A stretch of 32,000 nt of DNA from Candidatus Saccharimonadota bacterium (GCA_965231145.1 OZ246420.1:690001-722000); one strand, 5' to 3'; shown: positions 1 through 32,000, numbered from the stretch's first letter. Program-made: numbers and translations. The notes: generated by a model from the sequence alone, not told the origin.

Positions 1-1123
1 AGTTCCCAGCCCACTCGTAACCCTCCTGAGGAACAAAACGTAAGTGATTTCTTTCCATCGTTTCTCTATCTTTTATGGCATCATTATAACTCAACGTCAT
101 GCCTTCAAGTGGTTCTTCTGGTCCATACACATTTTGTGCAGGCATTGGCTTCTCTTCTACTACTGGGAAATCACCTTCTACTGCTTTGATTTTACTCTTT
201 CCATCAGCAGATGTTATGGTTCCACTATTATTCTCATCTTCTACATCCGTATTATTTTCTGGCTGAGCTCATCCTTCGCGCAACTTCGTTGCGTAATTTT
301 CACTATCCTGCCCATCTGCCCATTCGTAATTTTTTACAGGCTTAAGACCAAGATGGTATTTATCCATATTTGGATCTTTAAAGAAATCTTCATAACTCAT
401 AAAAGGCGTATTCATAAGTCTCTTTCCTTTTACCTTCATAGCAATATTTGCCGGATCTGTAGGATCCACAAACTCATACCCATCTTGTGGCATAAACTCG
501 AGATGATTATCTATCATCGCTTGTCTATCTTTAATAGCCTCTTGTGCTGTGACTTTAGGCACTTCTGTTACGACATTCTCTCCTTCTTGTCTTTCTACTT
601 TTCTCCCACTCATGCGAGATACATCCCACTTTGGATCATCAAGTGCAGCTACAATTCTGACGAGAGTAGCTTCTACGTCTGATGTGTCGATAATAGTATC
701 TTCAGGATGAGTAGTGTTCCATACTTTCTGAAATTCTTGTACTCTTTTTCCTGTATCTGATGTACCATACATACCATCGATACCCTTATCAAAGTGACCT
801 CCAAGCTTAGCAAGAGCGAGCTGCATGTTGAATGTAATACCCGCATCTAGATTACTATAGGTAGCTTGCTTTATAGATGGATCATCAATTCCTGCCTTAA
901 GGACATTTTTTACATGATCAACCGTAAGCTCTTTTTCAAGAAGCTCTTTCAACGTCTTACCCGAAAGATTATTCTTTATTTCCTTTTGCAGATCCTGCAA
1001 TTCTCCTTTCGTCTCATAGATTTCCTTATAACTATCTTTAATTTTACTTTCGAGTGAATTGATATCTCCGATTTTTGTAGAGATCGTGTTATCACCGATT
1101 TCATTTTTGATAAGTTCAGTCAT
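1..1123 (-). CDS. Hypothetical secreted/cell-wall-associated protein with peptidoglycan-binding-like motif (3' end runs off window start)
   Basis: ATG at 1121-1123. The standard-code ORF 269..1123 stops at TGA 269-271, but the frame stays free of TAA/TAG down to base 2 when TGA is sense. 'LALAKLGGHFDKGIDGMYGTSDTGKRVQEFQKVW' resembles the PG_binding_1 pattern (LG..DG.FG..T..AV..FQ). Internal duplication: 'AIKDRQAMIDNHLEFMPQDGYEF' / 'AIKDRETMERNHLRFVPQEGYEW'. Confidence 0.6.
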
Positions 1124-1150
1124 GGTAGTGATATAAGATGTATAAAGTGG

Positions 1151-1894
1151 TTATGCGTTTGCTCAGGGATAGAGTTCAAACTTTCTCTGAAATGCTTTCT
1201 GTCTTTTTTCTAAGTTATTTGCTACGGCATCGACTCCATCTTGCAAAGATGCATATTTCCTTGTACTTCCGTCGTCGGTATTACCGACATTTCCAGGATT
1301 ATTGGTTCGTACGGCTTTACCCTTCGTGGCCATCGAGCTATCAAGTGCAATAATGGCAGCAACAGCATATGGATCCACATTATGTTTCTTTGCGGCGGTT
1401 TCTATCATCTGAGTATTAAGTGGCGTGCCTTTAAATCATTTGATGAACTTATTGAGTCATTTTTGTTTCGCAGTTTCATGGATTCATTTTACTTTTGTTC
1501 CATATTTGTCTCATGTAGAGTACGCTCATACAAAGAACTTCTTTCACTGGAAGTGTCATGAATAAAGAACTTGCAGATAGTCAGAGCTGTTTGCTATTCC
1601 CTGTGGATAGAGATACTCATACTTATAGGGTCATCTGTAAGCAGGCTGCGGTGGTGTTTCTATTTTTGGAGCAGCTTTTGCTGCCTGCTTCTCCGGCCCG
1701 CCAGATCAAAAAAATGATTTGAATGCGTTTCCCAGTATATTTGTAAAGTTGGTCACAGTTGCTTTTATCTGATCAATAAATTGCTGCAGTGAATTAAGCT
1801 CACCACGGCTGCCTTTGAGTACTTTGTCTATTTCCTGTTGTTTCTGTTCTTCTTTTGAAAGAGGCTGTTTCTCAGGAGAGTTTTTTGGAGCCAT
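1151..1894 (-). CDS. Hypothetical protein with weak lysozyme/muramidase-like C-terminal region
   Basis: Track ORFs 1706..1894 and 1163..1408 are in one frame. The ~300 nt between them has no TAA/TAG. There are 10 in-frame TGA; the gene ends at TAA 1151-1153. 'KHNVDPYAVAAIIALDSS...NNPGNVGN' is reminiscent of cell-wall hydrolase domains; the family call is weak. Confidence 0.55.
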
Positions 1895-2202
1895 ACAACA
1901 CCATGCACAAAATAAAGTATCTCCAGTATATGGGCTGTTTACCTCAGGAGCAAAAATCTTCGGGCATGTATCATTATAGAAGAGATATTATATTTGACAT
2001 ACAAAAAATAAGTGATATGAGAAGTGATATAAGTATTTGCAATAGCTCTTCTTCTCTCTATACTCACTAGATATAAGCTCCATACGTACAAAGATACGAA
2101 GAAATTAGGTCGTCACGTGATTTCTTAGTCTCTTTGTTGCTATTGGACTTATGTAGTTCATAAAGTAGAAAGTTCTTAAAGCAGAAACAAACAAGGTGTT
2201 TT

Positions 2203-2266
2203 AACTTTATAAACTTTATAAACTTTACGAACCATCCTTAATACTTTTAACTTTATAAACTATTTT
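2203..2266. repeat. AACTTTATA 9-mer repeats directly upstream of pnp
   Basis: Three tandem units at 2203-2229 (AACTTTATA, AACTTTATA, AACTTTACG). A fourth unit at 2249-2257 is followed by degenerate AACTATTTT. The repeats end 2 nt before the pnp ATG. Confidence 0.8.
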
Positions 2267-2268: not shown

Positions 2269-4404
2269 ATGCCAACAAGCAAAAAACAATTTACTATCGT
2301 CCAGCACCAGGCTGACTGGCATGGACACTCATTTTCAGTTGAGTCAGGAAAACTTGCAGGACAAGCTGATGGAGCTGTTGTGGTAAAATATGACGACAAT
2401 ATGTTTCTCGTGACAGCAGTCATGAATAAAAATCCTGATGCCAATAAGGATTTTCTTCCACTGACACTCGACTTTAGAGAAAGTTACTCTGCTGCCGGTA
2501 AGATCGGTGGAGGTTCATACCGCAAAAGAGAAGGTAGACCCTCTGATCAGGCCGTACTTACGGGAAGACTTACTGATCGTGCGCTCAGACCTATGTTTCC
2601 AAAAGGTATGATCAACGATACTGTTCTCACGATCACTCCCCTCGCTATCGACCACGAACAAGATCTTGGCGTACTTTCTATCATTGGTTCATCACTGGCA
2701 GTGATGGCCGCAGGCATTCCGTTCGATGGACCGGTAAGCGCAGTAAGAATCGGGTATATCGATGGTAATTTTATCGTGAATCCAACGATTGAACAGATAG
2801 AGAAAGGTGAATTGAATTTGTTAGTTTCAGGAAAAGAAGGATCAATTAATATGATCGAATGTGATGCCGCTGAAGTAAATGAAGAGCTGATCGACAAGGC
2901 TTTTGCGCTCGGACAGGAAGAGATCAATCGTATGTGTAAAGTGCAGGCTGAGTTCCTCGCAAAGTGTACGATAAGCAAAAAAGAAATCGCCTACAATAAG
3001 CCCAGTGATGCACTTATGGCATATGTACAAGGGATTATCACACCAGAAAAATTTGCTGCTATGACAGGAAACAGTAAAGTTCCTTTCAATGAACTTTTCA
3101 ACGAGTATCAGAAAGAAACGCTCACGCTTGCGAAAGAAAAGATCGCTGATACGACCATTGAAGATTTTACGGAGTCGAAAATAAAGATCGCTGTGTTCAA
3201 TGTCATTAAGCACTATATCCGTGATCGTGTACTGCATGAGTCACTCAGAATTGATAACAGGGATAAGCTTACTATCAGGCCACTCTACTGTGAAGCCGGA
3301 CTCCTTCCAAGAGTACATGGTTCCGGTCTTTTCTGGAGAGGAGATACGCAGGTACTTTCAAGTGTAACACTTGGTTCTCCTGGCGATGTGGAGATGCTCG
3401 ACACCATGGAAGAAGACAATATCGAGAAGCGCTATATGCATCACTATAATATGGCACCCTACTCTACTGGCGAAGCGCAAGGAACAAGAGGAACGAACCG
3501 TCGTGAGATTGGTCATGGACGTCTTGCAGAGAAAGCGCTTGAAAGGATGATTCCTGACAAGGTAACATTTCCGTATACTATCAGAGTGGTTTCAGAGTGT
3601 GCGAGTTCAGGAGGTTCAACTTCTATGGGTTCTGTATGTGGTTCAACATTGGCGTTGATGGATGCGGGAGTGCCGCTCAAACAACCGGTAAGTGGTATCG
3701 CCATGGGACTCATGACTGATTCTACAGAAGATGGAAAGATCCTCAAATATACGATCCTCACAGATATCATGGGAACGGAAGACTTTACTGGAGATATGGA
3801 CTTCAAGGTTGCTGGTACAAAAAATGGTATCACTGCTATCCAACTCGATATTAAAATAAAGGGTATCACGCTCGCGATCATCAAAGAGACCATCATGCAA
3901 GCAAATATCGGAAGAAATGAAATCCTTGATTTCATGCTACAGACACTTCCGGAGGCGAGAAAAGAGCTTTCTCCATTTGCTCCAAAAATTGTTTCATTTC
4001 AGATCCCTGCGGACAAGGTTAAAGTGGTTATCGGAAAAGGAGGCGAAACTATCGATGAGATCATCGCTGAAACAGGTGTGAAGATTGACTTTGAAGACGA
4101 TGGAACATGTTTCATCACCAGTCGCGATCAAGCCATGATCGACAAAGCAAAATCTATTATCTTCGATATTGCTGTGGGACCACAGGTCGGCTCAGTAGTA
4201 GAAGGAACTATTGCTCGCGTGGAAGACTACGGCGTATTTGTTGCTCTCAATAAGTTCAAATCAGGTCTTTGTCATGTGAAAAATATGTGACCATGAGTTA
4301 CAGCACAACAGATTCACGCTGGCTACAAGATAGGAGACAAGATAAAAGTAAAAATCATGGAAATCGATAAGGAAGGAAGACTCAATCTGGCAAAAGCTAT
4401 CTAG
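2269..4404 (+). CDS. pnp: Polyribonucleotide nucleotidyltransferase (PNPase)
   Basis: 711 codons. Two RNase PH-like halves ('[25 protein letters not shown]', '[15 protein letters not shown]', 'DFKVAGT'), then KH ('VIGKGGETI') and S1 domains. The track ORF stops at TGA 4288-4290. Reading TGA (4288, 4294) as Gly completes the S1 domain '..[46 protein letters not shown]' to TAG 4402-4404. Confidence 0.97.
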
Positions 4405-4511: not shown

Positions 4512-4901
4512 ATGAGAAAAGGAGCATATGCTATTATTATCAATGATGAAAAAGAGATTCTTCTGACCAAAAAGAAGGACGTCTATATTTTGCCATGATG
4601 AAAACATGATGAAGGAGAAGATGACGAAAAGTGTATCAAAAGAGAACTTGGAGAAGAGATATGTATTCCTGAGAACGATATTACGATAGGTCATCATTAT
4701 AAAGACTCCATATGAGCAACTCCTCACTCAAAAACAGAAATACTATGTAAAACCTATTTTGTAACCATTAAAGATGAGAGCGCTGTGAAAGCAGGTAGGG
4801 AAATTAGTGAAGTTTTACGAACACGTGAGTTTCAGAACCATAATCTCTCAGAGATTACTAGAGAGATTATAGAAGCGCTACAAGCTGACACACTGATATA
4901 A
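4512..4901 (+). CDS. Nudix hydrolase
   Basis: Not in the track, because it is broken by TGA. Translation: 'MRKGAYAIIINDEKEILLTKKKDVYILPGGKHDEGEDDEKCIKRELGEEICIP...'. This is a full Nudix box GGx5Ex7REUxEExGU whose GG is encoded TGA TGA (4596-4601). Stop TAA 4899-4901. Confidence 0.9.
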
Positions 4902-5839: not shown

Positions 5840-6313
5840 CTATTTTACTTCAACAATTTTTACATCATATCTTCCGCTATCTGCCCTTACTCTTACAACA
5901 TCTCCTTTCTGCTTTCCCTTGATAGCAATACCAAGAGGAGAATCAAATGAGATCGTACCAGAAAGAATATCTACTTCTCCACTACCTACGATAGTGTATT
6001 CAAATACTTTTTTACTTTCGACAACTTCAATCTTTACCTTTGATCCATAACGGATTTCATCCGTCTTTGCTTTCCCGTCTGAGATAATCTGTACATCAGC
6101 AAGAAACGCTTCGATTTCTGCAATACGCGCTTCTATAAGCTCTTTCTCTGCAATAGATGTATCATACTCTGAGTTTTCCGAGATATCTCCTTGTCCAATT
6201 GCTTCTTTCAGTCTTGAAAGCGCAGCAGGAAGGTCTTCATTTTTTAGTCTGTGTAACTCAGATACCAGGTTGTCATATCACTCCTTCGTAAGATAATTGG
6301 TATTTTCACTCAT
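5840..6313 (-). CDS. greA: Transcription elongation factor GreA
   Basis: Absent from the track (TGA at codon 12). 'MSENTNYLTKEGYDNLVSELHRLKNEDLPAALSRLKEAIGQGDISENSEYDTSIAEKELIEARIAEIEAFL...IRYGSKVKIEV...ISFDSPLGIAIKGKQKGDVVRV'. This is the GreA coiled-coil plus C-terminal domain pattern. Stop TAG 5840-5842. Confidence 0.9.
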
Positions 6314-7026: not shown

Positions 7027-10000
7027 ATGAAAATACGCAAACATCACCGAGGGATTGCCCTAAGTTTTATCGCGATCAGTACTCTCTATTATTTCTGAAT
7101 GACAAGTCAGAAATCTTCTGCTGCTATGCTGGACTGTGCATCAGCGATGAGTATTACAGTACCGGTACAGGAGTGTCAGGGACTTGTAGAGCTCTTCAAT
7201 AACATGAATGGAGCTTCATGGACCAACAGTACAAACTGGAATCTTAATATCAATGTTTGTACTTGGTACGGAGTATCCTGTGCATTCCTTGATGGTCAGC
7301 GGCACGTGACCAGACTTTCTTTGGTAAATAACAATCTTTCTGGAAGTGGACTTCCGGCGAATATGTCTGGACTCAGATATATCACCGGTCTCGATTTAAC
7401 AACAAACCCCATAAGAGGAACCCTTCCATCAGAATGGTCAACGTGGACAGGAATACAAAGCTTTGCAATTTCACCAGCATATTCATTTCTCCTCTCAGGA
7501 ACATTACCTTCTTCATGGTCTACATGGACAAAGATCAAATACTTCAAAATTGGTCATGGTAATATCCAAGGTAATCTTCCTAGTTCTTGGTCTACATGGA
7601 CGGGTATACAACATTTTGAAGTAACACAAAATAACCTTACCGGAACATTACCTACTTCATGGTCAACGTGGACGGGTATCCAGCACTTCGGAGTAAGCGA
7701 CAATGACATAGAAGGATCGCTGCCATCAAACCGGTCAGGATGGATCAATATGTCATGATTTATCGCTTCCAACAACCAACTTACCGGCACACTTCCTACC
7801 TCGTGGTCAACGTGGACGAAGATTACTTCATTTGCTATTGATGGTAATCAAATCTCATGACCACTGCCTACAACCTGGTCAACATGGACGAAAATGAAAC
7901 GCTTTGGGGCAGGTAGCAATCAGCTAACAGGAACATTACCATCATCTTGGTCGACATGGACTGGTATCAATGTCTTTGAAGCCGGGAACAATCAGCTTAC
8001 CGGAACGCTTCCTTCTTCGTGGTCAACGTGGAGAAATCTTACATACTTTAGCGTACAAAATAACAAACTTCGTGGAACATTTCCATCAACTTACTCAGCA
8101 TGGAATTCGTTTGATGGACTTATTACTGTTTTCCGTAACAACTTTTTTGAAGGAGATATTCCTGCATCCTGGATAGGCATGACGGGGCTTTCAGCAACCT
8201 TCCTTAATAACAACTGTCTCAATCCCGTACAACCTAATCCTCCTTCAACATTTATCAATAGTAAAGCAGAAATCGGCTGGACAGGCACACAAACACACTG
8301 TGGAACCGATCTCGTTATTACTAAATCAAATAGCGCCTCTACAGGACTTATCGGATGAACATTCAACTATACTATTCACTATCTCAATAGCGGAGAGAAT
8401 GCTGTGACTTGAGCAAGCATCATCGACTACCTCTATTTATCTACAGGAGTTATGTTCGTCAGTTCTACTCCGACATTCACGAGTGAAACCGATGGGATGT
8501 ACTATTGGGATATTGGGACTCTTGAACCAATGCAATCCGGAGATATCGTTATCACTGTATCGTTCTCTGGGGATTATTTCTCTTCTGGAGACACCGTAAC
8601 AAACTATGCTGCTATCGGAGGATGGTATACATATGACCCAAATGAACTAAATAACGAAACCACTACTCCACCGGTCACACTTTTTGCTCCTGGAGCGACA
8701 GCTTCTGATCTCGTCATCAACAAGGTGAACGGAGCAGATACTGGTACTATCGGCGAACCTATTTCATATATTATCTCGTATTTCAATAGTGGAGACGTCA
8801 CTATTACAGGCACAAACATCTCTGACAGTCTACCGGGAGGTTTCAATTTCACAAGTGCATTTCCTGCTCCTACGCTTATTACTGGATCAGAGTTGTTCTG
8901 GGATATCGGAACTCTTACAGCGATGCAAAGTGGCATCATTATCATCACGGGATATGCAAACGAAACACTCGGATCCGGGGATGTTTTAGTAAACATGGCC
9001 GTGATCAATGGAATTCTTGATGACTATGATAACAATAATAATGTCTCTTTCACTTCACCTATCATACTTTTTGGTCCTACTATCTATTCGGATCTTACCA
9101 TCACGAAAGTAAATAATGCCGTAACAGGAACGATCGGTGGACTGATAAGTTATACTATCAATTATACAAACAGCTGAGCACAAACTGCTTCATGAATAAC
9201 TATTACTGATAGTTTACCTTCCGGATTATCTTTTGTTAGCGCGTTCCCAGCTCCTACTATAGCTACGTGATGAGATCTCTTCTGGAGTTTTGCTTCTCTT
9301 ACAGCAATGCAAACAGGCAAGATTATCATCACGGGATACATTGAAAATACTCTTGCTTCCGGAGATAGCATCATCAATACAGCTATCATTGATGGACTTG
9401 TCACTGATACTGCTACAGGAAACAATACTTCTACTACCCCACCCGTAACTGTTGTTGATCCTATTATATTCTCTGATCTCACGATTACTAAATCGAACAA
9501 TGCATCTACTGGCACAGTAGGTAGTCAGTTCAGCTATACGATCAATTATAGAAACAGCGGTGCCACTATGATCACAGGAATATCTATCGTTGATAGCCTT
9601 CCTGCCGGATTGTCCTTTGTCAGTGCTGCGCCAGCACCAACCATAGCTACATGAGGAAATCTCTTCTGGAATATTGGTACGCTGACTGCGATGCAATCAG
9701 GAAGCATTATCGTCACAGGATATCTTGAAAATACATTGTCATCCGGAGACACCATTATCAATACTGCTACTATTGATGGATTTCTTACCGACACTGTTAC
9801 AGGAAATAATTCCTCTACAACTCCTCCGGTAATTATATTTGATACGATAACATATGGGGATCTTAACATAGAAAAGATTGCAAATCAACTGACAGGAACA
9901 GCAGGAAACATCATCTCATATCTTATAAGGTATGTAAACGCAAGCTGAGCTCTTTCTCCTCTCTCTAGCATTACTATATCAGATCTTATTCCTGCAGGAC

Positions 10001-11316
10001 TGACATATATTTCCACAGACTTCTCATGATCTGCTGCAGACTTTAGCACAGGTATTACTGCTACCGGTTCAAATGTGACATGGAATATATGGAATGTAAC
10101 ATGATCTACTATCATGTCATGAGCATTCACTATCTATACCCAGATAGGAGCAGGCGTAGCATCAGGAACAGTATTGATGAACAGAGCGACTATCTTGAGT
10201 AGCGATATCATTGATATCTCTACAGGAGACAATACAGGTGTTGCTTCGGGCGTACTTGTCTTTGGACCACTTGTTACAGGAAACATGTCTGTCTTTAAAT
10301 TTACGGCAAATCCTATAGCTATCGCTTGAGACATCGTTTCATATATGCTGACATATCAAAATGATGGCGAAAGCACAGAAACAGGCATCTCTCTGATAGA
10401 TATTATGGATGATGGACTTACGTTCCTCGCAACAAACTTTACGACTGGATTGACTATTACTCCTATCGTCACTGGCGGCACGATCTTACACTGGAATATT
10501 ACCGGAAGCATCCTTCCTCACACATCAGGATCAATCCTTGTTTCAGCTATGGTAAACACCGGCGTTACTTCAGGAACTATCCTAGCAAACCACATCACTA
10601 TTACAGGAAATCGTACAGATACAAATCCGACATATGACTCAGACGTAGCATTCATTAATGTCATGGCTATCCCCGACGATCTGAGCGGAGGAAGTTATAG
10701 TACAACAGGAACCTCTACTGGCAATACGCCAACACCTCCAAACAATGATTCACGAGGATACGCAGGTGGTGGATTTGGAAGCAATCCTACGCCAAATATT
10801 GTCACACTCGGATCAGCTCCTACCCTCCTTGAGGATGAAGTATGTCCGTATAAAGATGGCGACTTTGAAAGATATAAAACAACTTTTAAAGATATTCAAA
10901 ATAGCGTCTTTAAACCAGCTGTAGATCTTATGCTCGACTACTGTCTCGTACAAGGTGAATACAACGGAGGAAAGATGTTTGGAGTATATAACTACCTCAG
11001 ATGGGGTGAAGCATATAAGGTATTCTCAAGACTTGCAGGTCTCAGCTTCTCTCGTACAGCCAATCCTGCTCACTGGTCAGACAGATATAGATTTGCTGGA
11101 CAGAAGGTGCATCTGTGGAATAGTATTACGTCACAGCGTCATGATCCAAGATCATATATCACGTATGCGGATATCTTTACACTCGGGAACAATCTTCTCA
11201 AATACTATAAGAAACCTCTTCTCGAGTACGACCCAACACTTAATTACAACAACGCAATCAGCAGAGGTAAATTTGCTCTGTTCATCCAAAACATTATCGG
11301 AAGAATCAAAAATTAA
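7027..11316 (+). CDS. Giant secreted surface protein: signal peptide, LRR repeats, DUF11 (conserved repeat domain) repeats, SLH-like C-terminus
   Basis: Six track ORFs (7099, 7894, 8452, 9307, 9691, 10345) are all in frame 1 and are separated only by TGA (about 15 in-frame TGA, no TAA/TAG). Start ATG 7027 ('MKIRKHH.GIALSFIAISTLYYF'). 1429 codons. Stop TAA 11314-11316. Confidence 0.85.
7318..8170 (+). repeat. About 11 LRR-type 24-aa coding repeats (consensus N.LTGTLPSSWSTWTGIQ.F)
   Basis: Read directly: 'GTLPSEWSTWTGIQSF', 'GTLPSSWSTWTKIKYF', 'GNLPSSWSTWTGIQHF', 'GTLPTSWSTWTGIQHF', 'GSLPSN(CGG)SGWINMSGF', 'GTLPTSWSTWTKITSF', 'G(TGA)PLPTTWSTWTKMKRF', and others. Confidence 0.85.
8304..10650 (+). 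repeat. About 6-7 DUF11-type ~125-aa coding repeats
   Basis: Recurring 'DL.ITK.N....G.IG...SYTI.Y.NSG......I.I.DSLP.G.SF.SA.PAPT......LFW.IGTL.AMQSG.III.TGY' with high nucleotide similarity between units (e.g. around 8910, 9300, 9680). Confidence 0.8.
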
Positions 11317-11408: not shown

Positions 11409-11419
11409 AACTACAATTG

Positions 11420-11492
11420 AGCGAGATACCGGATTCGAACCAGTGACCTCATCCCCCGGAGAGATGTGCTCTACCATCTGAGCTAATCTCGC
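11420..11492 (-). tRNA. tRNA with anticodon CCG; acceptor end looks tRNA-Gly-like, not Arg-like (identity uncertain)
   Basis: Minus-sense GCGAGAT TA GCTC AGATGGTA GAGC A CATCT CTCCGGG GGATG AGGTC ACTGG TTCGAAT CCGGT ATCTCGC T. Clean cloverleaf with canonical T loop. G1-C72, C2-G71, G3-C70, U73. U rather than A at position 20. Confidence 0.8.
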
Positions 11493-11569
11493 TGGTGGGC
11501 AGATTGGGAGTCGAACCCAAGACCTCCTGATTAAGAGTCAGGCGCTCTAGCCAGCTGAGCTATATGCCC
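11493..11569 (-). tRNA. tRNA-Lys (anticodon CTT), CCA encoded
   Basis: Minus-sense GGGCATA TA GCTC AGCTGGCTA GAGC G CCTGA CTCTTAA TCAGG AGGTC TTGGG TTCGACT CCCAA TCTGCCC A CCA. One acceptor mismatch (T6/C67). Abuts the next tRNA with no spacer. Confidence 0.9.
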
Positions 11570-11639: not shown

Positions 11640-11805
11640 AAAAAAAGCTTATAGGTTGATACCCTATAAGCCCCGGCTAAACCTGTAAGTAACTCACCGG
11701 TGGTCCAGCTATGGTGCCCCATGCGGAATTGTAACTAAGTACCCTAAGGTACCCCGAAGAGTCATAATATCTCCTCTGCAGGCACTCCACGCGTAGCCTT
11801 CCCTG
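11640..11805 (-). ncRNA. Candidate structured small RNA of unknown class, co-transcribed downstream of tRNA(CCG)
   Basis: A ~165-nt non-coding stretch, conspicuously GC-rich relative to its flanks, that starts right after the tRNA 3' end. It contains a C(UUCG)G hairpin (ACUC-UUCG-GGGU), a GUACC-UUAG-GGUAC hairpin and the palindrome CACCGGUG. It ends in a strong terminator GCTTATAGG-gtatcaa-CCTATAAGC + TTTTTTT (11640-11671). I could not match SRP, RNase P, 6S or tmRNA motifs. Confidence 0.45.
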
Positions 11806-11876
11806 TAGCCCGAACAGGATTCGAACCTGTACCAACAGAGACGGAGTCTGCTATCCTACCGTTAAACCATCGAGCT
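11806..11876 (-). tRNA. tRNA with anticodon CCG on a tRNA-Trp-like body (candidate CGG decoder)
   Basis: Minus-sense AGCTCGA TG GTTT AACGGTA GGAT A GCAGA CTCCGTC TCTGT TGGT ACAGG TTCGAAT CCTGT TCGGGCT A. A1-U72 first pair. The anticodon loop CUCCGUC differs from the tRNA-Trp loop CUCCAAA at positions 36-38. U37 is unusual. No A20. Weak D stem. Confidence 0.75.
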
Positions 11877-12028: not shown

Positions 12029-12385
12029 TTATAATGTGTTTCACAGAGCTGATCATGAGCATTTTTTATCAACACGTATATCGAACTCTTTACCGGACTG
12101 TGCAAGTCTATATGTTCCTACCTGCATATAGGTATCCACATATGACGGGATAAATGGTCGGTTGCACTTTATCGCTAATTCGCTATATTCGTCTCATGAA
12201 ACTCCTTCAAAAGATCAATTATCTCCTCGGGAAAATCGCTCAGTGAGGCATATGGATCTATCAGTTATTGCTCTCTCCGGATAAAGGCATCCCATCGCTC
12301 TGGCTAAAGTGAAAAATATGTTCTCATGTTCCTCACTGTAGTGCATATGGGAAACAATGCTTTGAAAGATATGGCTTTTGGCCAT
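12029..12385 (-). CDS. Hypothetical protein; possibly frameshifted/decaying (alternative 3' end at 11927)
   Basis: ATG 12383-12385 opens a 118-codon frame (TGA as sense) ending at TAA 12029-12031. This frame has 3 CGA codons, which are rare elsewhere. A second frame carries protein-like segments ('DPYASLSDFPEEIIDLLKEFHETNIAN', 'IKNAHDQLCETHYNHAHAYITQSILEQKKLWSDEKYLGNILEVIGLK*'). The frames switch at an A6 run. Confidence 0.35.
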
Positions 12386-12432
12386 GATTTTTGTATACTG
12401 TTGACAGAATTAGCTCGTGTACTCCAAAGCCT

Positions 12433-13538: not shown

Positions 13539-13575
13539 TAGTTATATAATATTTACGATCTATAACCTATAAGTT

Positions 13576-19258: not shown

Positions 19259-19341
19259 TTTCTATTTATCTATAAGATTTACTTCTGTGCTATGTTCAAG
19301 AGTTGGAAGAGAACATCAATGTTACGATTTTGTAGCTTTGC

Positions 19342-21249
19342 TCATGAAGCTATCATACCAGGCTTGTATCTATTGATAATAGTGACAAGCTGATCTGATG
19401 TAAGTAATGTTGATGCATTAAAGCTTGAGATAAGAGATTTCCCGTTTGCTGTGAGTCCCATAAGACCAAGATCACAGGCCTGTGTGATCACAGTCTGCAT
19501 ACTTGGTGTGAAAGTACTGTAGTCAGAGTATTTTGTTATGTCGCATAGAGCGTTATGGACGATAGTTTGTTTCTTCACATTTTTTGCAAACTGGACGAAC
19601 ATCTGAGCAGCACCATATCTTGAAACTGGCGCATACATTTGTGTTGCTGAGAGTTTTATAGGAGTAATACCATATCTATATGCCCATCCGATAAGTGTAT
19701 TTACAACGCTTATTGACGTCGTACCTGTTCCAAATGGCATAGGAGAAAGAACTGTCGATGTCGGACTCTTGATGATAATACCACTCGTAAGCACAGGAGT
19801 TATAACTCTTCCGGTGAAAATAGGATTTATAACCCTACCTGTAAGGACAGGAGTTATAACTCTTCCTGTAAGAACAGGATTGATGATTACTCATGTATTT
19901 ATTCTTCCGGTAAGCACAGGATTTATAATGACACCTGTATTTATTCTTCACGTAAAGATAGGATTGATAACTACTCCTGTATTCACTCTTCCGGTAAATA
20001 TTGGATTGATGATTGGTTTTCCTGTTGCGTAGATACTTGCATTACATCTTGTCATGAGATTTGGTACAAGTGGATTGATATACGTAATACTTATACCATA
20101 CACACCAGGCGTCATATATGTATGCCCACTGGTGAAGGTTGGCGGAACTCCACTTCAAAGCCATGGCCCGAAAGCGATTGGACCTTCTCCCCAATAAATG
20201 CTACCAATAACTCCTCCGAATCCTGTCAGGGTAATCGTTACAGGAAGTGGAGCCATGCCTGATGTCGGAGCAACAGAAAGATTACATGTTGGGATAGTAT
20301 ACTGACATGTAAGACTACATCCTGAACCTGGAAGACCATTGCTTGCTCCAAGATCACATTGTTCTGGTGCTTCCACAATTCCATTTCCACAGATTGGTCT
20401 TGGAGTACTTTTGCCCATAACGACTACTGTTGCTGAACACATGCTTGTGTAGTTCGGAGAGTATGGATTAACCGCACTTGCTGTTATCGTGTATGTCCCG
20501 CTTGTCATATATGTATGCGGTGTTGAAAACCATACACCTGTCACCGCAGTTCCTATCCATGGTCCAAATGTTGATGTACTATCTCCTCGTGAAACAGAAT
20601 TTATCTGTCCTACAGATCCTGTTACTGTTGCAATAACGTTGAGCGGAGCTGTTCCTGTTGTCGGAACAACAGTGATAGCACATTTTGGCATAACGAGTGT
20701 ACATGTTGCACTACATCCCGATGCTGGAAGGCCATTGTTTGCTCCTGCATCACACTGCTCTGGTGCTTCTACGATTCCATTTCCACAGATCGGTTGTACT
20801 CTTCCTGTATTGATCGGAGCTTTCGTACCTACGGCTACATTGTTGCTTGAGCAGAATGCGCTTGCATTACGGTCTATCCATGTAAACATCGGATCTGTAG
20901 CATATACTACGTTATTGGTAATAGTATATACTCCTGTAGTCGTATATGTGTGGTTTGCATACCAACGAACATGTGTTGGGTTTACCCATATCGATCCTGT
21001 GATTGGTCATGAGAAAAAACCATCTCCCCAGTTGATACTACTATATGCTTCGACATATCCACTTGAGATAGATCTGTATACTGTACCACTGAGTGTCACC
21101 GTATGAGGCACTGATCCTGCAGGCGGCGTTACCGAGATGTCACATATATCCCATGGGCCACTTGCAGCAAAAGTGCTTGAACCCACCGCAGCGACTAGAA
21201 GCGCGATTCACCGCATGTAAATCTTTTTTAGTTGTCTTCACATTTTCAT
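19342..21249 (-). CDS. Secreted surface protein: signal peptide, 3 PKD-like modules, 2 Cys-rich CGNG..E.CD repeats, 11-aa tandem repeat linker, SLH-like C-terminus
   Basis: Track ORFs 20155..20889 and 19342..19794 are in one frame with an open stretch between them. It extends upstream over TGA to ATG 21247-21249 ('MKMGRQLKKIYM.GIALLVAAVGSSTFA'). 'ICGNGIVEAPEQCD(A/L)GA(N/S)NGLP.SGCS.TC' occurs twice. 'P.(T/S)G.APL.V' PKD-like. 635 aa. Confidence 0.8.
19780..20019 (-). repeat. In-frame 33-nt (11-aa) tandem repeat, about 6-7 units
   Basis: 'PIINPIFTGRVNTGVVINPIFT-G-RINTGVIINPVLTGRINT-G-VIINPVLTGRVITPVLTGRVINPIFTGRVITPVLTSG'. The hyphenated G are TGA (19948-19950, 19891-19893); the same column is GGA/GGT in sister units. 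Confidence 0.9.
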
Positions 21250-21384: not shown

Positions 21385-22248
21385 CTACGAGAATAGTTTT
21401 CCCAAATACCCATCTTTCTGCCAGAAACTTCCGTCTGCAAAGACTATCACGCCGGTGATATCTTTTTCGACTGTAAGCAGCTGTTTTCCTTTTTCCGGTC
21501 ATGAGACAAATACAGCAGTGCTATAAGCGTCAGCGAGTAATCATGTGGGAGCTGCGATGTAGACGCCGGCGATGGAAACGATAGGTTCGCCGGTGTGTGC
21601 ATCAAGCAGATGATGAAACTCCCCCACTCTTCTCTTTGCGCCATTGCTTGATGCGACTGAAAATCCATCCACGTGTATGGTTCAAATAAGCCGAGAAAGA
21701 TCGAAAGGATTTTCGAGCCCGACATCATATCAACCATGAGCGATGATATCGCCTCCGAAATCCAAAAGAAAATGAGAAAATCCTGCAGTGAGGAGCCTGT
21801 GGGAAAGTTTGTCCAATAGATATCACTTTCCGACTGAGCCAAATTCGATTTTTACACCGTGGTGTAAGATCACGGAGTGATCGGAAATTTCAACGTGCTG
21901 ATATCCCATGGATCATCACGCTTTACGTTGAAATGAATAGGTATGATCGTATCAGTATGATTCCAGTGTTGAGATAATAGTAGGATCAAATGCTCCTCAT
22001 GTTTTATGAGCAAGATCCAGTGAAAATATGAGAAGTTCATATGCTTCGTCATCAAGCGGGATAGGTTGTTCTTGTGTTTTATTGATTGTATCAAGCCGAT
22101 TTCCAGGAATAAATCTGGAGTAACGCTCTTCAAACTTTTTGCATATCGAAAAACAATCCTGCACAAGCTGCGTAGGATCGTTTTCAGAAAGAATATCTAT
22201 CGTCAACACCGAGCCGCATGACTCCTGACGAAACACGTACTGTTGCAT
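21385..22248 (-). CDS. apbE: FAD:protein FMN transferase (ApbE family)
   Basis: '..SRFIPGN.LDTIN..', 'T-G-GAFDPTI', 'ESY-G-YD', 'GSVGK-G-YLLDK', 'LDFGGDIIAHG', 'HHLLDAHTGEP', 'LADAYSTAVFV'. About 10 in-frame TGA. Stop TAG 21385-21387. 287 aa. Confidence 0.9.
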
Positions 22249-22252
22249 AAAA

Positions 22253-22792
22253 CTATTTTTCTAATGCATGAAGAGCTTTATCAAAAGCTTGCGCTGTAAG
22301 GCTTGAACCATTTACGTATGTAACTTTTACATCAGCAATATTTTTTCCAACGATCTGTCCTGCGATTCCGCTGATGAACATATCCTGATACATCTTGCTT
22401 TTTACTGCATGCGCTACATTTTTTGCTTCAACTGCAGTGATCACATCGTTCTCGATAGTGACTGTTGCATCGAGAGGTTCTGGACCTGCAGGACTGTCAT
22501 ATGTGCTAGTAAGGTGAAATATACCATTGAGCGATGTTTCTGCAGATGAGTCATTCGAATGAGAGACAGAATGATCCATATCTGTCATAGCATCGTGGTT
22601 CATGCCAGTTGCAGGAGTCTGTTCAGCATTAGTTTCTACTGACGTAAAACCCGTTAATGATGTCTCATTTTTTAATTCTGCTCTCTGCTCTTTGCTCTCT
22701 GAATTATTAGCAGGAATAATAGAGCATCATTGTAGAGTAAGTGTTAGTATAACAAAAAATCCAAAGATCGCTTTTTGATGTTGAAGAGCCAT
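22253..22792 (-). CDS. FMN-binding-domain lipoprotein (likely ApbE substrate)
   Basis: Start ATG 22790-22792. Lipobox 'LTLQ-G-CS' with G = TGA. C-terminal 'VKVTYVNGSSLTAQAFDKALHAL' matches the flavinylation context D..(S/T)GA(T/S).T. Stops 4 nt before the apbE start. Confidence 0.7.
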
Positions 22793-24019: not shown

Positions 24020-24592
24020 ATGAAAAAATTACTTACTATAGGATCACTTATAGCAGCAGGCACACTAATCAGTGGATGTACCTTACAGAATACCAATAAT
24101 AATCACGTTATGATGAGTGGGCACTCTATGAACCACGACATGGATAATAACATGATGATGCACGACATTGAAAATGAAGAAGAATTTATCATCAATATGA
24201 TACCCCATCATCAAGAAGCTGTTGATACTGCACAGATCGTCGTAGCACAATCTACCAATAGCGATCTTAAGAAACTTGCTCAAAATATTATCGATGCTCA
24301 AACCAGAGAGATCACTATGATGAATGGTTGGTTACAACAGCGGTATCCAAATAGCACTATCAAAAGCAACTATCAAAATATGATGCCCGAGCTTACAACT
24401 CTGACAGGAGACGCTTTAGATACCGCCTTCTTACAGTGAATGATAATACATCATATGTGAGCAATTCATATGGCGCAAAGCGTATTAAAAGCGGAGCATA
24501 GAACTGAAACCATGACTCTTGCCAATAATATTATCAGCACACAACAGCAAGAAATTGTGATGATGAAAAACATGTTACAAAATATCAAATAA
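24020..24592 (+). CDS. DUF305-family lipoprotein (copper-stress associated family)
   Basis: Lipobox 'LISGC'. Met/His-rich linker. Two DUF305 half-repeats: 'FIINMIPHHQEAVDTAQ...LAQNIIDAQTREITMMNGWL' and 'FLQ-G-MIIHHM-G-AIHMAQ...LANNIISTQQQEIVMMKNML'. Stop TAA 24590-24592. Confidence 0.8.
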
Positions 24593-24743: not shown

Positions 24744-25484
24744 CTAGAATCGAATCGAAATAACTCCATCAGATACGAACTTCAAACTAAGGATAATAAT
24801 TCCTATAAGAATAACTTTTCTAAATATTTGTTCAGAGATGCTCTTCACAATCTTCCTCCCGATATATGAACCTATCAGCGCTATGAGAAGCAATAAAGGT
24901 ATAAGGAAATAATATTGTCTCTCTAAAAATCATTGTCAGAAATAGAGAGGTATTCTTGTGGCATCGACTATCAGAGCAACTAGAGCAATAGTAGCAATAT
25001 ATTGCTCTTTCGGCAAAGCAAATGCTGTCATAAATGCGCCTCTTAACACTCATCATGTACCAATGAGTCAGGCAGTAAACCCTGACAGTCATCATCCTAC
25101 GATACCCGCCATGGGACTATTTGGCAGTGTAAACTTCGGTTTTCGTAATACATATGAAGCAAATAGTGTCAGAATAATACCCAGCACTATTTTTAGTATA
25201 TTTTGATCGATGTAAGACACTAGTAAAGACCCAATGACTGTTAAAACAACACTTGGGATTCCAAAGAGTAACGCTACTCTCTTATTAACATGATTACGGA
25301 AGAAGTAGAGTCTCGAAGCATTTCCAAAGATATGATAAATTGCTACCAGCAGCAATGCTGTCTGGAAGTCTAAAACAAGCAATGCCAGCGGCAGGAAAAT
25401 ACTTGATGATCAGAATCAAGCTATAGTTCAAAGCACCTCTGAAATAAGTGCTACGATTAACAGAAAGAATATAGTTTGCATCAT
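24744..25484 (-). CDS. TauE/SafE-family anion exporter (membrane protein)
   Basis: 246 aa, reconstructed over about 12 TGA. 'EVL-G-TIA-G-F-G-SSSIFLPL' and 'GIVG-GG-LSGFTA-G-LIGT-GG-VLRGAF' are the duplicated TauE glycine motifs. Multi-TM. Stop TAG 24744-24746. Confidence 0.85.
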
Positions 25485-25562: not shown

Positions 25563-25592
25563 AAAAGCTCCTCTCTCTATGAAGGAGCTTTT
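25563..25592 (-). terminator. Terminator after delta-60 repeat protein gene
   Basis: 10-bp stem AAAAGCTCCT / AGGAGCTTTT. Confidence 0.6.
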
Positions 25593-25601
25593 TCTCATTT
25601 T

Positions 25602-27608
25602 TTACAGTCTCATTAGCATAAGCATCGCCCATCATCTTGGAAGCGGACTAAATAGATCTGTCTTCACTTTTATTACTCATAATTCATGCAGTTTATCTAC
25701 ATGTTTCACATACCGGTTCTCGTCATCTCCATTATAGGCTGATCCATATAATAACCTGGAGAGGATAGTTGCGAATTGTGCCTTAGTAACTGCTTCATCC
25801 GGATTAAAGTTTTTATTTACCTCATTAGTCACATTATTGATACCCATCACACCGAGCTGACATGCAAGCTTCGCATATATCTGATATTCTGCATCACCAT
25901 TTATCATATCATCAAACGCACACTCTCTGCTCTCATCCGGTTGCTTGTCCAATACATTGATCGCGTAATTACTGATCATTTTTGCCGCATCTCTTCTGAG
26001 TAATACTCATGTCATATTTGCCTTGATACAATCTGACATAGTTGTGATGCTGTGGCCATATGCAAAGTTATATGCATCATTCATCTCTCATTCCATACAG
26101 TTGAGCTGCTGTGGCTGTGCAACAATCTCACTTGATGATAAAATCTCAGATGAACTATCCGTATTATCATCCACCTGTTCTGTGGTGTCCTCTGACTCTA
26201 TCGTTGTTCAGGTAGCGGCGACAGTTGTTCAGGTAGCGGCGACAGTTGTTCAGGTAGTATCAGATGTAACTGCTACGCCTCATTGCAACAGACTCATTCA
26301 CTCACACAAACCATCATATTGCGTGGGAGATATATCTCCATTGGGACAGTTATCTACTGGTGCACGATAGACTTTTCCAGCTCACTGAAGAGCAGGACTA
26401 TTATCTCATGCTGATGCTATCAAACGAGTCATATATGGATCAGAAATGGGTGAGCCATTAAAATACTCAAAGTATCCAGCTACAATAATACTACCATCAT
26501 TATGCAACAGATGAGTATTAATTTCAGCATCAAAACCTGAACCTCCTACGAACGAGCTATCAAGCACCCCATTACTATCCAAACGAGCTATACGATTTGC
26601 TTCTACCCCACTATAAGAAGTAAATGCACCTCCCAGCAATATAGAATCTCCAGTTTCAATGGAGACAGATATCGGCACGTTATTAAATCATCCCCCCATA
26701 GTAAAACTTGTATCGAAACTTCCATCTGTATGTAAACGAGCTATGCGGTTTGCAGTATGACCATTATAATCAGTAAAAGAACCAACTGCAATTATCTTTC
26801 CATCTGACTGTGCAACAATTTGATATACATGGTGATTGAAACCAGAACCAACATTGAAACTATTATCTATAGTAGCGTCCTCATTCAAACGAATAATACG
26901 GTTTGAACTAACTCAACTAAAGTGAGTAAACTGTCACGCGGCAATTATCTTCCCATCGCCCTGTACAATCAATGACGACACCTCAAATTGACTAGTAATT
27001 TCACCGCTAAATAGACCGTTAGCTATATTAAATCACGTATCTCTCGTTCCATCTGTGTTGAGACGGACAAGAGCCCTCGTACTAAATCATGAATAGTTAC
27101 TAAAGTTTCATCATACAAGGAGTTTTCAATCTGTAAGTTGTTTGATCACACTTACCTGCTGACTGGAAGTGGGGAAACCCGAACCGATCTGAAACGTATT
27201 GTCTCTCGTCCCATCACTATTGAGACGCACTATACGATTGGTTGTAACACCACTAAATGATGTAAAACTTCCTCACACAACGACTTTACCATCCTGCTGT
27301 AACTCAATAGAAGCTACCGCGCTATTAAATGTACCAATAACATTAAATCACGTATCTCTCGTTCCATCTGTGTTCAAACGCAACACCCTACTCGCAGATA
27401 GTCCATTAAAATTACTAAAATATCCCGCAACGAGAATTTTACCATCGGGTTGTTCTATCATCTTCAAAGGTACATTATCAAGACCACTTCCTCCAGAATC
27501 GAATGTAGTATCAACCATCAAACCCGCAAATACAGCTCACGCATGAAATATAAATATACTCATTGCAATGACAGAGATCAAAACCCTACTATACTTCTTC
27601 ATAGACAT
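25602..27608 (-). CDS. Secreted delta-60/beta-propeller-repeat surface protein with Thr-rich linker and SLH-like C-terminus
   Basis: One frame from ATG 27606-27608 ('MSMKKYSRVLISVIAMSIFIF') through track ORFs 26688..26888, 26406..26678 and 25677..25979 to TAA 25602-25604. About 7 units of '..DGK....G.F..(F/Y).G.....R(I/L).RL..DG..D..F..G.GF'. More than 20 in-frame TGA, many on the repeat glycines. Confidence 0.8.
26203..26258 (-). repeat. 21-nt in-frame tandem repeat (2.7 units)
   Basis: GTTGTTCAGGTAGCGGCGACA at 26203 and 26224, partial at 26245. Encodes 'T-G-TTVAA' heptads with G = TGA each time. Confidence 0.9.
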
Positions 27609-27865: not shown

Positions 27866-28348
27866 CTAGAAAATACTTTTAATGAATTTATATTCTTGTC
27901 TTTCTTCTATTCGGGGAAGATATTTTCATAGCTCAGACAATTTAACTTTTTTGACATATTTTATTTCTTCTTGCTTTGATTTTTCTTTATCTTTTTTTTG
28001 TATTATTATATCATGTAGTTGAATATATAATCTAAGTTACAGAATACTATCTAACGAAGCATTTTCACTTATCTCATAAAATCCAAAAAGATTTATTTTA
28101 GCCGTATGCTCTTTAAGAACAATATTGGTCTCCTCCTCTACTTCTCTGATTCATGTTTCAAAAATATTCTCATTCATTTCTGGTTTTCATCAGGGCATTT
28201 GCCACTCAGCTCAATTCTTAGAGACGATTATTACATTATTATCTTTATCCAAGATTCGAACATATACTTGTGATATTTTCTTTCCTCTTGGAAGATCTTC
28301 TAATGAATTTGTACTATACCAAACTCTAGTAATATTACTCTCTTCCAT
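27866..28348 (-). pseudogene. Nudix hydrolase interrupted by an in-frame TAA (pseudogene or read-through)
   Basis: 'MEESNITRVWY...WQMP-GG-KPEMNENIFET-G-IREVEEETN' is a full Nudix box (GG = TGA TGA 28187-28192). TAA at 28037-28039 after only 103 codons. The same frame stays open for 56 more codons to TAG 27866-27868 and encodes a Nudix-like C-terminus 'QEEIKYVKKVKLSELGKY'. Confidence 0.6.
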
Positions 28349-30125: not shown

Positions 30126-30141
30126 TCTGTAAGGAGTATAT

Positions 30142-30339
30142 TTATTCTTTTTCTAGTGGTCTTTGTGATTCTATTTTCAATCTCTTTTCTCTAGCTAATC
30201 TCTCGTTTCTTAAAGCAGTATTTCGTTTCATCATCCAAGCATAATATTTAGGATCATTTTCTTTTGTGACACTCATAAATAGATTAAAAACTTCTGTTAA
30301 TGCTTTTCATAAACCGTGGTCATCATCCTTCATATCCAT
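30142..30339 (-). CDS. Small hypothetical basic protein (65 aa)
   Basis: 'MDMKDDDHGL-G-KALTEVFNLFMSVTKENDPKYYAWMMKRNTALRNERLAREKRLKIESQRPLEKE*'. Convergent with the HsdS-like gene. Confidence 0.35.
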
Positions 30340-30458
30340 TTGTTATATAGCAATAAGATAAAAGGACATAATACATACTAATTTAAGTTAGTAAAGAAAT
30401 TGCAAAGTAAGGCATTAATCTTATATTGACGTAAATTTAATTACGTTATTTTATAGAT

Positions 30459-32000
30459 ATGTGAAGTATAATTAAGGAAAATAGTCCTTATATCCCTAGA
30501 TTAATAGGAATATATTTTGCAGAACCTTATAAAAGATTTGATAGATGAACAATTATCAATTTATCGCAAGATTATAATATTAGTAAAACTCCTCAATGAA
30601 ATGAATTTAGTGAATTTGATACTTCAAATTCTATTGATTTGTATGTGGAAGAAGAATTATGAGCAATAGTATTAAACATAGAAAAAACATTTAAAGATAC
30701 ATTTGGAAGAGTTTTATCTAACGCTATTGAATGATATTCAAATAATATTTCCACAAGAGCTATAATATGAGATAATTGAGCGGGGAAATCAACTATTTTA
30801 GAACTTATAGAAGGATTTTATAAAACAGTTAGTCGTAAAATTATTGCTGATTCAATTAATGAATTAAGAGAAGGTTTGGGTTATGTTAATTCTATTATTC
30901 CAGGCATAGTTTTTATAATCGTATGTAAAGATATTAAATGAAAAATAAGACATAAATTAGTAAATCTAACAAGAACTCAAGGTATATTAAGCTCTAAGAA
31001 TGAACTTAAATCAATCATTTTAGAAAATTATGATTTGTTAGGATCAGTATTAACGGATCATTTACATATTTGTAAAAACAAAGAGGATGCCGTACCAGTA
31101 ATAAATTTACGCTTACCTAACTTTTCACGTAAAAGTTGAAGAGAAAACATTATACCTTACTGGAACTCTTTAACTATATTTCTCTTTAATCTCATTAAGG
31201 AAGATAATGTTGAAACGTTCTTTCCAAATAACGAAGAAGCAAATTTATTAAATTGATATTTTCTTACAATATATCAATATTTAATAGAAAATAAGATCCC
31301 TAAAGAATCGATAATCTTCTTTTTCCTTTTTTATCATTTAGGATCTTTTGAATATGTGTCTCGCAAAGACTTAAAATATGATCCTCAAAGTGAAGAATAT
31401 AAACAAGTAATATTAGCCCATCAGATTACTATAGATATATATAAAGAAATTGCTCAAAAACATAAATCTACAGAGTATAATGATATAATTTCTAAATTGC
31501 TGTCATTAATAAATGCTTATCAAGATAGTCAAATAACTATTAGTGAAGTAGAAAGCAGAAAAGGATCTGATAGACTTGCGATTAATATGAAAGTTCCACT
31601 TTCTCCTGAATTAAAACTACCAAATATGTATAAATTCATTTTTGAAATCATACCCAAGCATTTAGTGAATGATTTAAAAGTTAGATCTATTCTAGAATAT
31701 AATTTAACTATTCCAATTGCGACTTTCCTTAATAATTTAACTAATATCGAAAACAATGAAACAAAGAAAGATCTATTAAAAGCCATTAAAAATCATTGGC
31801 TATTTACGGTAAATGTTAAATTGCAAACTCCCTCAGGGATACATTATCTCGACTCACTATCATCCTGAGAAAAACAAATGATATTACTTTTTTCTCGCAT
31901 AAAAAATAATATTTCTTCGTATTATGAGAACCCTATTAAAGATGAAGAAAACCAAAAGACATTGCCACATTTGATACTGCTTTTAGACGAGCCTGAAAAT
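30459..32000 (+). CDS. ABC/OLD-type (AAA_15/21-like) P-loop ATPase, 3' end beyond window
   Basis: A single frame is open from ATG 30459 to the window end (TGA as sense, about 12 of them). Walker A 'II-G-DN-G-AGKSTILELI' (30762-30800). A roughly 400-aa helical insert follows. Walker B 'LILLLDEPEN' occupies the last 30 nt of the window. Confidence 0.8.

Follow-up and report, generated by a model that had tools for sequence, protein, structure and literature searches.

Two of the genetic codes described so far are close to the one considered here. NCBI translation table 25, the Candidate Division SR1 and Gracilibacteria code, goes back to Campbell et al. 2013 and Rinke et al. 2013 (both cited in PMC8629427 and bioRxiv 10.64898/2026.05.24.727570), and the reading of UGA as glycine in this clade is textbook table 25 (PMC8629427; bioRxiv 10.64898/2026.05.24.727570). 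The other was reported by Shulgina & Eddy 2021 (eLife 10:e71402, PMC8629427), who used Codetta and found that Absconditabacteria read UGA as glycine and CGA and CGG as tryptophan, the latter codons being rare. Further codes of interest are table 4 of the Mycoplasmatales and several endosymbionts, the reading of CGG as glutamine in Peptacetobacter, and the competing tRNAs that translate CUG as serine or leucine in Ascoidea (the last two in PMC8629427). Here we analyse a 32,000-nucleotide stretch of DNA, hereafter the window (Candidatus Saccharimonadota bacterium, GCA_965231145.1, OZ246420.1:690001-722000), with respect to the meaning of its UGA, CGA and CGG codons and to the two tRNA genes with anticodon CCG, tRNA(CCG), that it carries.

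We are highly confident that the window is a chromosomal segment of an uncultured member of the Absconditabacterales (SR1) and that it follows the recoded code of this clade, i.e. UGA for glycine, UAA and UAG for stop, and CGA and CGG for tryptophan, with CGA firmly assigned and CGG probably so. The comparisons given below show directly which amino acids these codons stand for, that termination is confined to UAA and UAG, and to which lineage the window belongs. As for the decoding molecules, the literature on the clade suggests that UGA would be read by a tRNA-Gly(UCA) charged by glycyl-tRNA synthetase (GlyRS), that release factor 2 would be absent, and that CGA and CGG would be read by tRNA(UCG) and tRNA(CCG) without arginine identity. 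The loss of arginine identity is partly visible in the window, because both of its tRNA(CCG) genes are without A20.

The window resembles table 25 in its reading of UGA as glycine, in having UAA and UAG as sole stops, in coming from a low-GC genome of the candidate phyla radiation, and in its Absconditabacterales lineage. It differs from table 25 in that CGA and CGG, which are arginine codons there, behave as tryptophan codons. The first-pass annotation, which had assigned the window to genetic code 25, was therefore correct with respect to UGA and the two stops but not with respect to CGA and CGG. The code of Shulgina & Eddy is matched in both reassignments, in the clade, in the rarity of CGA and CGG and in CGG decoders without A20; moreover, the GC fraction of the window (0.38) is within the range of 0.26-0.38 given in PMC8629427. 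There are three differences: the Trp-type tRNAs of that study have G73, whereas the tRNA(CCG) genes of the window have U73 and A73; these two genes are built unlike the Trp-derived tRNA(CCG) of other recoded contigs; and a single CGG site of the window resembles a glutamine position. With table 4 the window shares a sense UGA in a low-GC, reduced genome, but the amino acid is glycine rather than tryptophan. Both reassignments and the clade are already known, that of CGA and CGG to tryptophan having been published for the clade in PMC8629427, and the window is one more example; a possible novelty lies only in its two atypical tRNA(CCG) genes.

In-frame TGA codons and glycine

The coding content was described by 26 non-overlapping long stop-to-stop open reading frames (ORFs), which cover about 85% of the window. 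They contain 141 in-frame TGA codons (about 135 after trimming to likely starts) per about 9100 codons, and TGA occurs in 24 of the 26, PNPase, Fmt and GreA included. Of the 24 ORFs whose 3' ends lie inside the window, 18 end in TAA and 6 in TAG, with no other stop, and neither in-frame TAA or TAG codons nor frameshifts were found in the ORFs of the window. With the standard code there are 11 ORFs of at least 200 amino acids (9.7 kb), and reading TGA as sense raises this to 29 (34.4 kb), i.e. the long-ORF content is tripled. The corresponding controls gave 12 ORFs (10.5 kb) with TAG as sense and 16 (14.2 kb) with TAA as sense. The in-frame TGA codons are thus confirmed as real and as specific to TGA among the stop codons. 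The earlier statements that nearly all genes are cut by TGA while ending in TAA or TAG, and that the supplied ORF track is misleading, are both correct.

When TGA was translated as X, Pfam domains were matched over their whole length, TGA codons included, in 12 genes: PNPase, both Nudix proteins, GreA, YidD+Fmt and the short-chain dehydrogenase, and also MsrB-MsrA, ApbE, DUF305, TauE and DUF5122. The resulting protein lengths agree with those of homologs (287 amino acids for ApbE, 246 for TauE, 302 for MsrB-MsrA). Counting TGA as glycine raises the glycine content from 6.2% to 7.8%, and TGA then makes up about 20% of all glycine codons of the window, whose GC content is 37.8%. The protein-coding features are listed below in window coordinates. 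We re-read the sequence at all positions for which the first-pass annotation had claimed a TGA and found the codon at each of them, in the context described; x denotes the residue encoded by TGA.

2269..4404, plus strand: PNPase (two RNase_PH domains, KH and S1), used as taxonomic marker; 2 TGA, in the S1 domain
4512..4901, plus strand: Nudix hydrolase; TGATGA at 4596-4601, within 'ILPxxKHDEGE', is the 'GG' at the start of the Nudix box; CGA at 4818-4820
5840..6313, minus strand: GreA; a single TGA ('LTKExY'), glycine in the E. coli GreA and Thermus Gfh1 structures
7027..11316, plus strand: leucine-rich repeat (LRR)/repeat surface protein of 1429 amino acids; 15 TGA, of which 7858-7860 is the glycine column of one LRR unit
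12196..13434, plus strand: YidD-Fmt fusion ORF; 7 TGA, that of 'MTQIxPELL' being glycine in 3/3 Fmt structures; CGA at 13171-13173 and 13222-13224 and CGG at 13303-13305, all plus strand
13573..14559, plus strand: inosine-uridine nucleoside hydrolase, among the few genes with no TGA
15452..16240, minus strand: short-chain dehydrogenase; 3 TGA, including 15677-15679 within 'CVCPxTIDTP' and that of 'RLxTPEEV'
17981..18889, minus strand: MsrB-MsrA fusion; 5 TGA, three of them on columns that are 76-92% glycine in 114 homologs; CGA at 18881-18883 (minus) in a hydrophobic/aromatic column
19279..21249, minus strand: DUF4215/PKD-like repeat protein; 7 TGA, those at 19891-19893 and 19948-19950, in tandem 'NP[IV][FL]T-G-R[IV]NT-G-V' units, being GGA/GGT in sister units
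21385..22248, minus strand: ApbE (FAD:protein FMN transferase); 9 TGA, with glycine as top residue in 6/9 columns
22253..22792, minus strand: lipoprotein; TGA at 22727-22729 encodes the residue preceding the lipobox cysteine ('LTLQxC')
24020..24592, plus strand: DUF305/CopM-like protein; 2 TGA, that of 'HHMxAI' being glycine in 2qf9
24744..25484, minus strand: TauE/SafE permease; 10 TGA, eight of them on columns that are 72-91% glycine in 116 homologs
25602..27608, minus strand: DUF5122 beta-propeller protein; 22 TGA on repeat glycine columns, with TGA at 26203-26258 in 'TTxTTVAAT' repeats
28037..28348, minus strand: second Nudix-like protein; TGATGA at 28187-28192, within 'QMPxxKPE', is the 'GG' of the Nudix box
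30459..32000, plus strand: P-loop ATPase, truncated where the window stops; TGA encodes the two Walker-A glycines within 'IIxDNxAGKST' (30768-30770 and 30777-30779)

The amino acid at the TGA positions was investigated using homologs of ApbE (32 sequences), TauE (116) and MsrB-MsrA (114) taken from a collection of 5.8 billion proteins. All of these homologs were below 62% identity, a cut-off that limits the bias from members of the same lineage. Glycine was the top residue in 18 of the 24 TGA columns, as compared to a background of 8.9% over the 842 columns of the three proteins, and all 14 TGA columns with at least 60% conservation are glycine columns. The claim that UGA falls on invariant glycines is in accordance with this result. 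For the other sense codons, 306 of 346 conserved columns showed the standard meaning, and no codon deviated systematically.

The same tendency is seen at the codon level. We compared 7534 aligned codon pairs between the window and three close relatives, namely the GTDB genomes L001 and L051 and a 40.6-kb Logan contig, ERR7015365, whose DNA is 69-82% identical to the window over longer stretches. The 117 partners of window TGA codons were TGA (48), GGN (45) and other codons (24), and none of them was TGG, TAA or TAG. Conversely, the TGA codons of these relatives were opposite GGN 50 times and opposite TGA 48 times in the window. In a wider set of 75 Absconditabacterales loci, the relatives' TGA was opposite a window GGN in 506 of 724 cases.

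Pfam scores were consistently higher with TGA as glycine than as tryptophan: 120.6 vs 89.3 bits for TauE, 160.4 vs 138.9 for ApbE, 212.8 vs 199.6 for PMSR, 200.0 vs 193.0 for adh_short_C2 and 288.1 vs 250.4 for DUF5122, which amounts to about 111 bits over the five families. The P-loop ORF (30459-32000) gave its ABC_tran Walker-A match (E = 2.4e-7) only if both TGA codons were read as glycine. In alignments to PDB structures, the TGA codons of the short-chain dehydrogenase fell on the glycine of 'PG.iDT' in 3/3 structures and of 'RlG' in 2/3, that of Fmt fell on glycine in 3/3 structures, and those of GreA/Gfh1 and of DUF305 'HH.G' also fell on glycine. The internal repeats of the window point in the same direction. 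The glycine column of the LRR units (7027-11316) consists of 9 GGN and 1 TGA, and TGA and GGN are mixed within one column of the tandem 'NPxxTGRxNTGV' units and of the DUF5122 blades, as the first-pass annotation had noted for its tandem repeats. Taken together, the homolog columns, the codon interchange, the Pfam scores, the PDB alignments and the internal repeats support the reading of UGA as glycine.

Two observations weigh against this reading. Six of the 24 TGA columns are not dominated by glycine (ApbE 115, 116 and 240, TauE 139, MsrA 260 and 313); these are variable columns, as expected for any codon. In addition, no tRNA(UCA), GlyRS, prfA or prfB gene was found in the 32-kb window, so that the UGA-decoding machinery is taken from what is known of the clade rather than seen, and no tRNA(UCA) was found among 153 fetched loci.

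The lineage was assessed by ranking similarities of a single marker, PNPase, which is not a phylogeny. The best relatives, at 79-82% identity, are unnamed or Patescibacteria metagenome-assembled genomes, followed by Absconditabacterales/SR1 genomes at 56-70%, including SR1 oral taxon HOT-345, and the identity to Gracilibacteria-labelled genomes is only 46-51%. The source names of the ApbE and MsrB-MsrA homologs are likewise consistent with Absconditabacterales/SR1. On these similarities we place the window in the Absconditabacterales (GTDB class JAEDAM01, i.e. Absconditabacterales or BD1-5), which makes the earlier placement in Absconditabacteria/Gracilibacteria more precise.

CGA and CGG at tryptophan positions

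CGA and CGG together occur 26 times in the window, CGG only 8 times inside likely coding sequence, and their usage per 10,000 codons is 17.5 (CGA) and 11.0 (CGG) as compared to 83.3 for TGG. In the codon pairs with the three relatives, the partners of window TGG included TGG (30), CGA (7) and CGG (3). Of the 18 partners of window CGA and CGG, 15 were CGA, CGG or TGG and one was an arginine codon; CGT, CGC and AGA are absent from these pairings among the commonest partners listed.

Individual sites show the same pattern. CGA at 13222-13224 is the tryptophan of the Fmt 'NPWP' motif in the structure alignment, and the Formyl_trans_C score was 43.0 bits with tryptophan and 35.5 with arginine (+7.5). 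CGG at 24341-24343 falls on tryptophan in both CopM repeats, the DUF305 score being 114.3 bits with tryptophan and 110.6 with arginine. In the LRR protein, CGG at 7732-7734 belongs to a tryptophan column made up of 8 TGG, 1 CGG and 1 TAC. CGA at 20587-20589 in the DUF4215 protein stands where 'WG[DE]G' has its tryptophan, the relative having TGG there; CGG at 25713-25715 in the DUF5122 protein corresponds to TGG in two of the relatives and to CGA in the third; and at CGA 25143-25145 in TauE tryptophan is the commonest residue of the column (52/116, 45%). Moreover, about 10% of the database homologs have arginine at the invariant tryptophan of MsrB 'GWPSF' and MsrA 'GCFWC', which makes sense only as mistranslated CGA or CGG (CGR). 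These comparisons firmly indicate that CGA is read as tryptophan, and they make the same reading probable for CGG.

The alternative that survives best is plain NCBI table 25, in which UGA is glycine and CGA and CGG are still arginine codons, their co-location with tryptophan being due to genuine Trp-to-Arg substitutions. We consider it unlikely. Several observations speak for it or weigh against a uniform reading as tryptophan. Neither of the two CGG codons of ApbE (22096-22098 and 21691-21693, minus strand) resembles a tryptophan site. The latter is on a polar Q/E/R column, is glutamine in all close homologs and is CAG in the ERR7015365 ortholog, and the ApbE Pfam score for the two codons was 162.1 bits with glutamine, 160.4 with arginine and 156.7 with tryptophan. 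It is the sole site hinting that CGG is perhaps not uniformly tryptophan. CGA at 1307-1309 is opposite AGA in L051; CGA at 13171-13173 lies one residue past the conserved Fmt 'IDW' tryptophan, the alignment being ambiguous there; and three CGR codons stand just before the hydrophobic cores of signal peptides, i.e. in n-regions, where arginine would be equally natural. Finally, L051, the closest relative, carries, where the window has its tRNA cluster, a tRNA(UCG) gene (8916-8990 in L051) whose D-loop is Arg-like (A20), with A73 and with A19:U56 replacing G19:C56 in a compensated manner; L051 nevertheless uses CGA and CGG at tryptophan sites.

Against plain table 25 stands the observation that CGA and CGG are exchanged for TGG but hardly ever for AGA or CGY, as well as the position of CGA on the 'NPWP' tryptophan and of CGG on the CopM and repeat tryptophans. 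The improved Formyl_trans_C and DUF305 scores, the arginines at invariant MsrB and MsrA tryptophans, and the missing A20 in both tRNA(CCG) genes of the window point the same way.

Some candidate lines of evidence were dropped. CGA 13171-13173 was not counted for tryptophan, being one residue off the 'IDW' tryptophan, nor was the CGG at ApbE position 55, where the tryptophan of close database homologs may be mistranslated TGA. The N-terminus of the DUF4215 protein and codon 384 of Fmt gave no alignment to the relatives.

Other readings of TGA and the database records

Next in order is UGA as tryptophan (table 4), which public pipelines assume for this organism and which we regard as extremely improbable. 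In its favour, database homologs carry tryptophan at TGA positions, including the organism's own TauE record, P0038. The DNA behind this record is identical to the window: a Logan contig from run ERR4405440 (L083) is 100% identical to window 19136-26232 (7.1 kb), and P0038 matches the translated window everywhere except at its ten TGA codons, which table 4 turned into W. In other words, these tryptophans are an annotation artefact. In the public homolog sets, W accounts for 5-26% of invariant-glycine columns and R for about 10% of invariant-tryptophan columns (MsrB/MsrA); the records concerned are P0038, P0001-P0011 and P0158-P0162. Table 4 is further contradicted by the glycine in the TGA columns of distant homologs, by the absence of TGA-TGG pairs at the codon level (0/117 and 0/41) and by the loss of Pfam score with tryptophan in all five families.

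A standard-code genome whose TGA codons reflect selenocysteine, programmed readthrough or damage (pseudogenes, sequencing error) has only the presence of in-frame TGA in its favour and can be set aside as practically without likelihood, since the TGA codons are spread over nearly all ORFs, PNPase, Fmt and GreA included, their aligned columns are glycine and not cysteine, no in-frame TAA, TAG or frameshift accompanies them, they are kept or swapped with GGN in three relatives, and an independent assembly of this organism is identical over 7.1 kb, which means that they are not assembly errors. The data rule out tryptophan and selenocysteine, as the first-pass annotation had already done, and equally readthrough and sequence damage.

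The tRNA(CCG) genes, neighbouring features and significance

The window has three tRNA genes, all on the minus strand:

11419..11492, minus strand: tRNA with anticodon CCG (tRNA#3), candidate decoder of the reassigned CGG
11493..11569, minus strand: tRNA-Lys(CUU), ordinary
11805..11876, minus strand: second tRNA with anticodon CCG (tRNA#1), of Gln/Glu-type architecture

The first nucleotide of tRNA#3 adjoins the encoded CCA of tRNA-Lys, and a terminator lies behind the gene. The anticodon loop reads CUCCGGG and thus shares G37 with ordinary bacterial tRNA-Arg(CCG). The acceptor stem is formed by G1:C72, C2:G71 and G3:C70, the discriminator base is U73, and position 20 is U instead of A. tRNA#1 is built differently: it is 72 nucleotides long with a 7-nucleotide D-loop and a 4-nucleotide variable loop, which is the architecture of tRNA-Gln/Glu, and has A1:U72, A73, an unusual U37 and a weak D-stem of mostly G·U pairs. 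Of the fetched tRNAs, tRNA-Gln genes resemble it most. About 160 nucleotides (11640-11800, minus strand) separate tRNA#1 from a strong terminator hairpin; this region has no ORF, a fold z-score of -2.1 and no match to an Rfam family, and may be an unclassified small RNA or a mere spacer.

According to the published identity rules, arginine tRNAs have A20 and A/G73, and tryptophan tRNAs have G73 without A20, with A/G1:U72 as a supportive feature (PMC8629427). By these rules neither tRNA#3 nor tRNA#1 is Arg-type or Trp-type. Both are without A20, and they also lack the G73 expected of a bacterial tryptophan acceptor (U73 and A73, respectively), which has to be held against the reading of CGG as tryptophan; A1:U72 is present in tRNA#1 only and not in tRNA#3.

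G1:C72, C2:G71, G3:C70 and U73, as found in tRNA#3, are also the elements that would be expected of a tRNA-Gly(UCA) of code 25. A reading of CGG as glycine, which this Gly-like acceptor end suggests, was rejected, as no CGG is opposite GGN or TGA. It is also weakened by the fact that G1:C72/C2:G71/G3:C70 is the usual acceptor stem of bacterial tRNA-Arg(CCG), as in the E. coli sequence and at locus L108.

Metagenome contigs were scanned for tRNA(CCG) genes. The strict pattern for tRNA#3 gave no match, a looser pattern found 70 loci, and none of these 70 has a close homolog of tRNA#3. In 17 of the 70 loci (e.g. L084, L098, L104), TGA-dependent ORFs occur together with a different tRNA(CCG) that has A1:U72, G73 and the loop CUCCGAA. 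In recoded contigs this G73 tRNA(CCG) often adjoins tRNA-Trp(CCA), as would a decoder derived from it, so it is the expected Trp-derived molecule. The pair in the window is structurally unlike it. L124 is an eighteenth recoded locus, whose tRNA(CCG) variant has a different body. Molecules similar to tRNA#1 were found in contigs with normal TGA use, and the scan pattern had no match in viral contigs; a phage origin of tRNA#1 was considered and is without support, no similar sequence having been found in GenBank phages.

We do not count the presence of two structurally unrelated tRNA(CCG) genes as a finding, but can describe what the pair may mean. tRNA#3 may descend from a tRNA-Arg(CCG), with A20 lost and U73 now standing on a G1:C72/C2:G71/G3:C70 stem, while tRNA#1 has a Gln/Glu-type body. 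Either a tRNA may have changed its aminoacylation identity by a route not described so far, or CGG may be ambiguous, i.e. read as tryptophan and to some extent as glutamine or another residue. Ambiguous decoding would fit the one Gln-like CGG site (21691-21693). The situation is reminiscent of CGG as glutamine in Peptacetobacter, in that tRNA#1 has the Gln/Glu-type body expected of such a decoder, and of the competing tRNAs of Ascoidea, in that two dissimilar tRNAs share one anticodon and might both be charged. In contrast to Peptacetobacter, only 21691-21693 points to glutamine, and tRNA#1 has U37 and C3:G70 as compared to the glutamine elements A37 and G3:C70. That CGG is served in this Absconditabacterales sublineage by two unrelated tRNA(CCG) molecules, with a decoder that, unlike the one in other recoded genomes, did not arise by duplication of tRNA-Trp(CCA) and hence with a novel identity change or ambiguous decoding, is a tentative idea which we think is rather doubtful.

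Some neighbouring features deserve a brief description. The predicted surface protein at 7027-11316 consists of about ten LRR units and repeated modules of about 130 amino acids; its gene is missing from the otherwise syntenic L001 and L051, so a variable region adjoins the tRNA cluster. YidD (membrane protein insertion efficiency factor) and methionyl-tRNA formyltransferase form one ORF with no intervening stop, and likewise in L001 and L051. Two adjacent minus-strand ORFs, one at 16259-16756 and the other at 16781-17227, resemble each other at the N-terminus ('INKLYRDKL' against 'INRLVRDRM'); neither matches a Pfam family significantly, and each has a weakly similar counterpart in L001 (29-31% identity). 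A 460-amino acid protein (28743-30125, plus strand) is paired with the P-loop ATPase at 30459-32000, which has weak ABC_tran, AAA_21 and AAA_23 matches, and the gene pair may be a defence-type module. On a relative's contig, an SMC_N/AAA_23 protein and a DUF6602 protein are found near the homologous DUF5122 gene.

The choice of translation table has practical consequences for annotation. Table 11 applied to this sequence shatters nearly every gene. Table 4 writes tryptophan at about 1.5% of residues, many of which are catalytic or structural glycines, and table 25 mistranslates about 0.3% of codons (CGA and CGG), placing arginine at conserved tryptophan sites. Such errors spread into the protein databases. 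As for the evolution of the code, should the charging of the two tRNA(CCG) molecules agree with the codon data, a single order would have arrived at the reassignment of CGG along two evolutionary routes.

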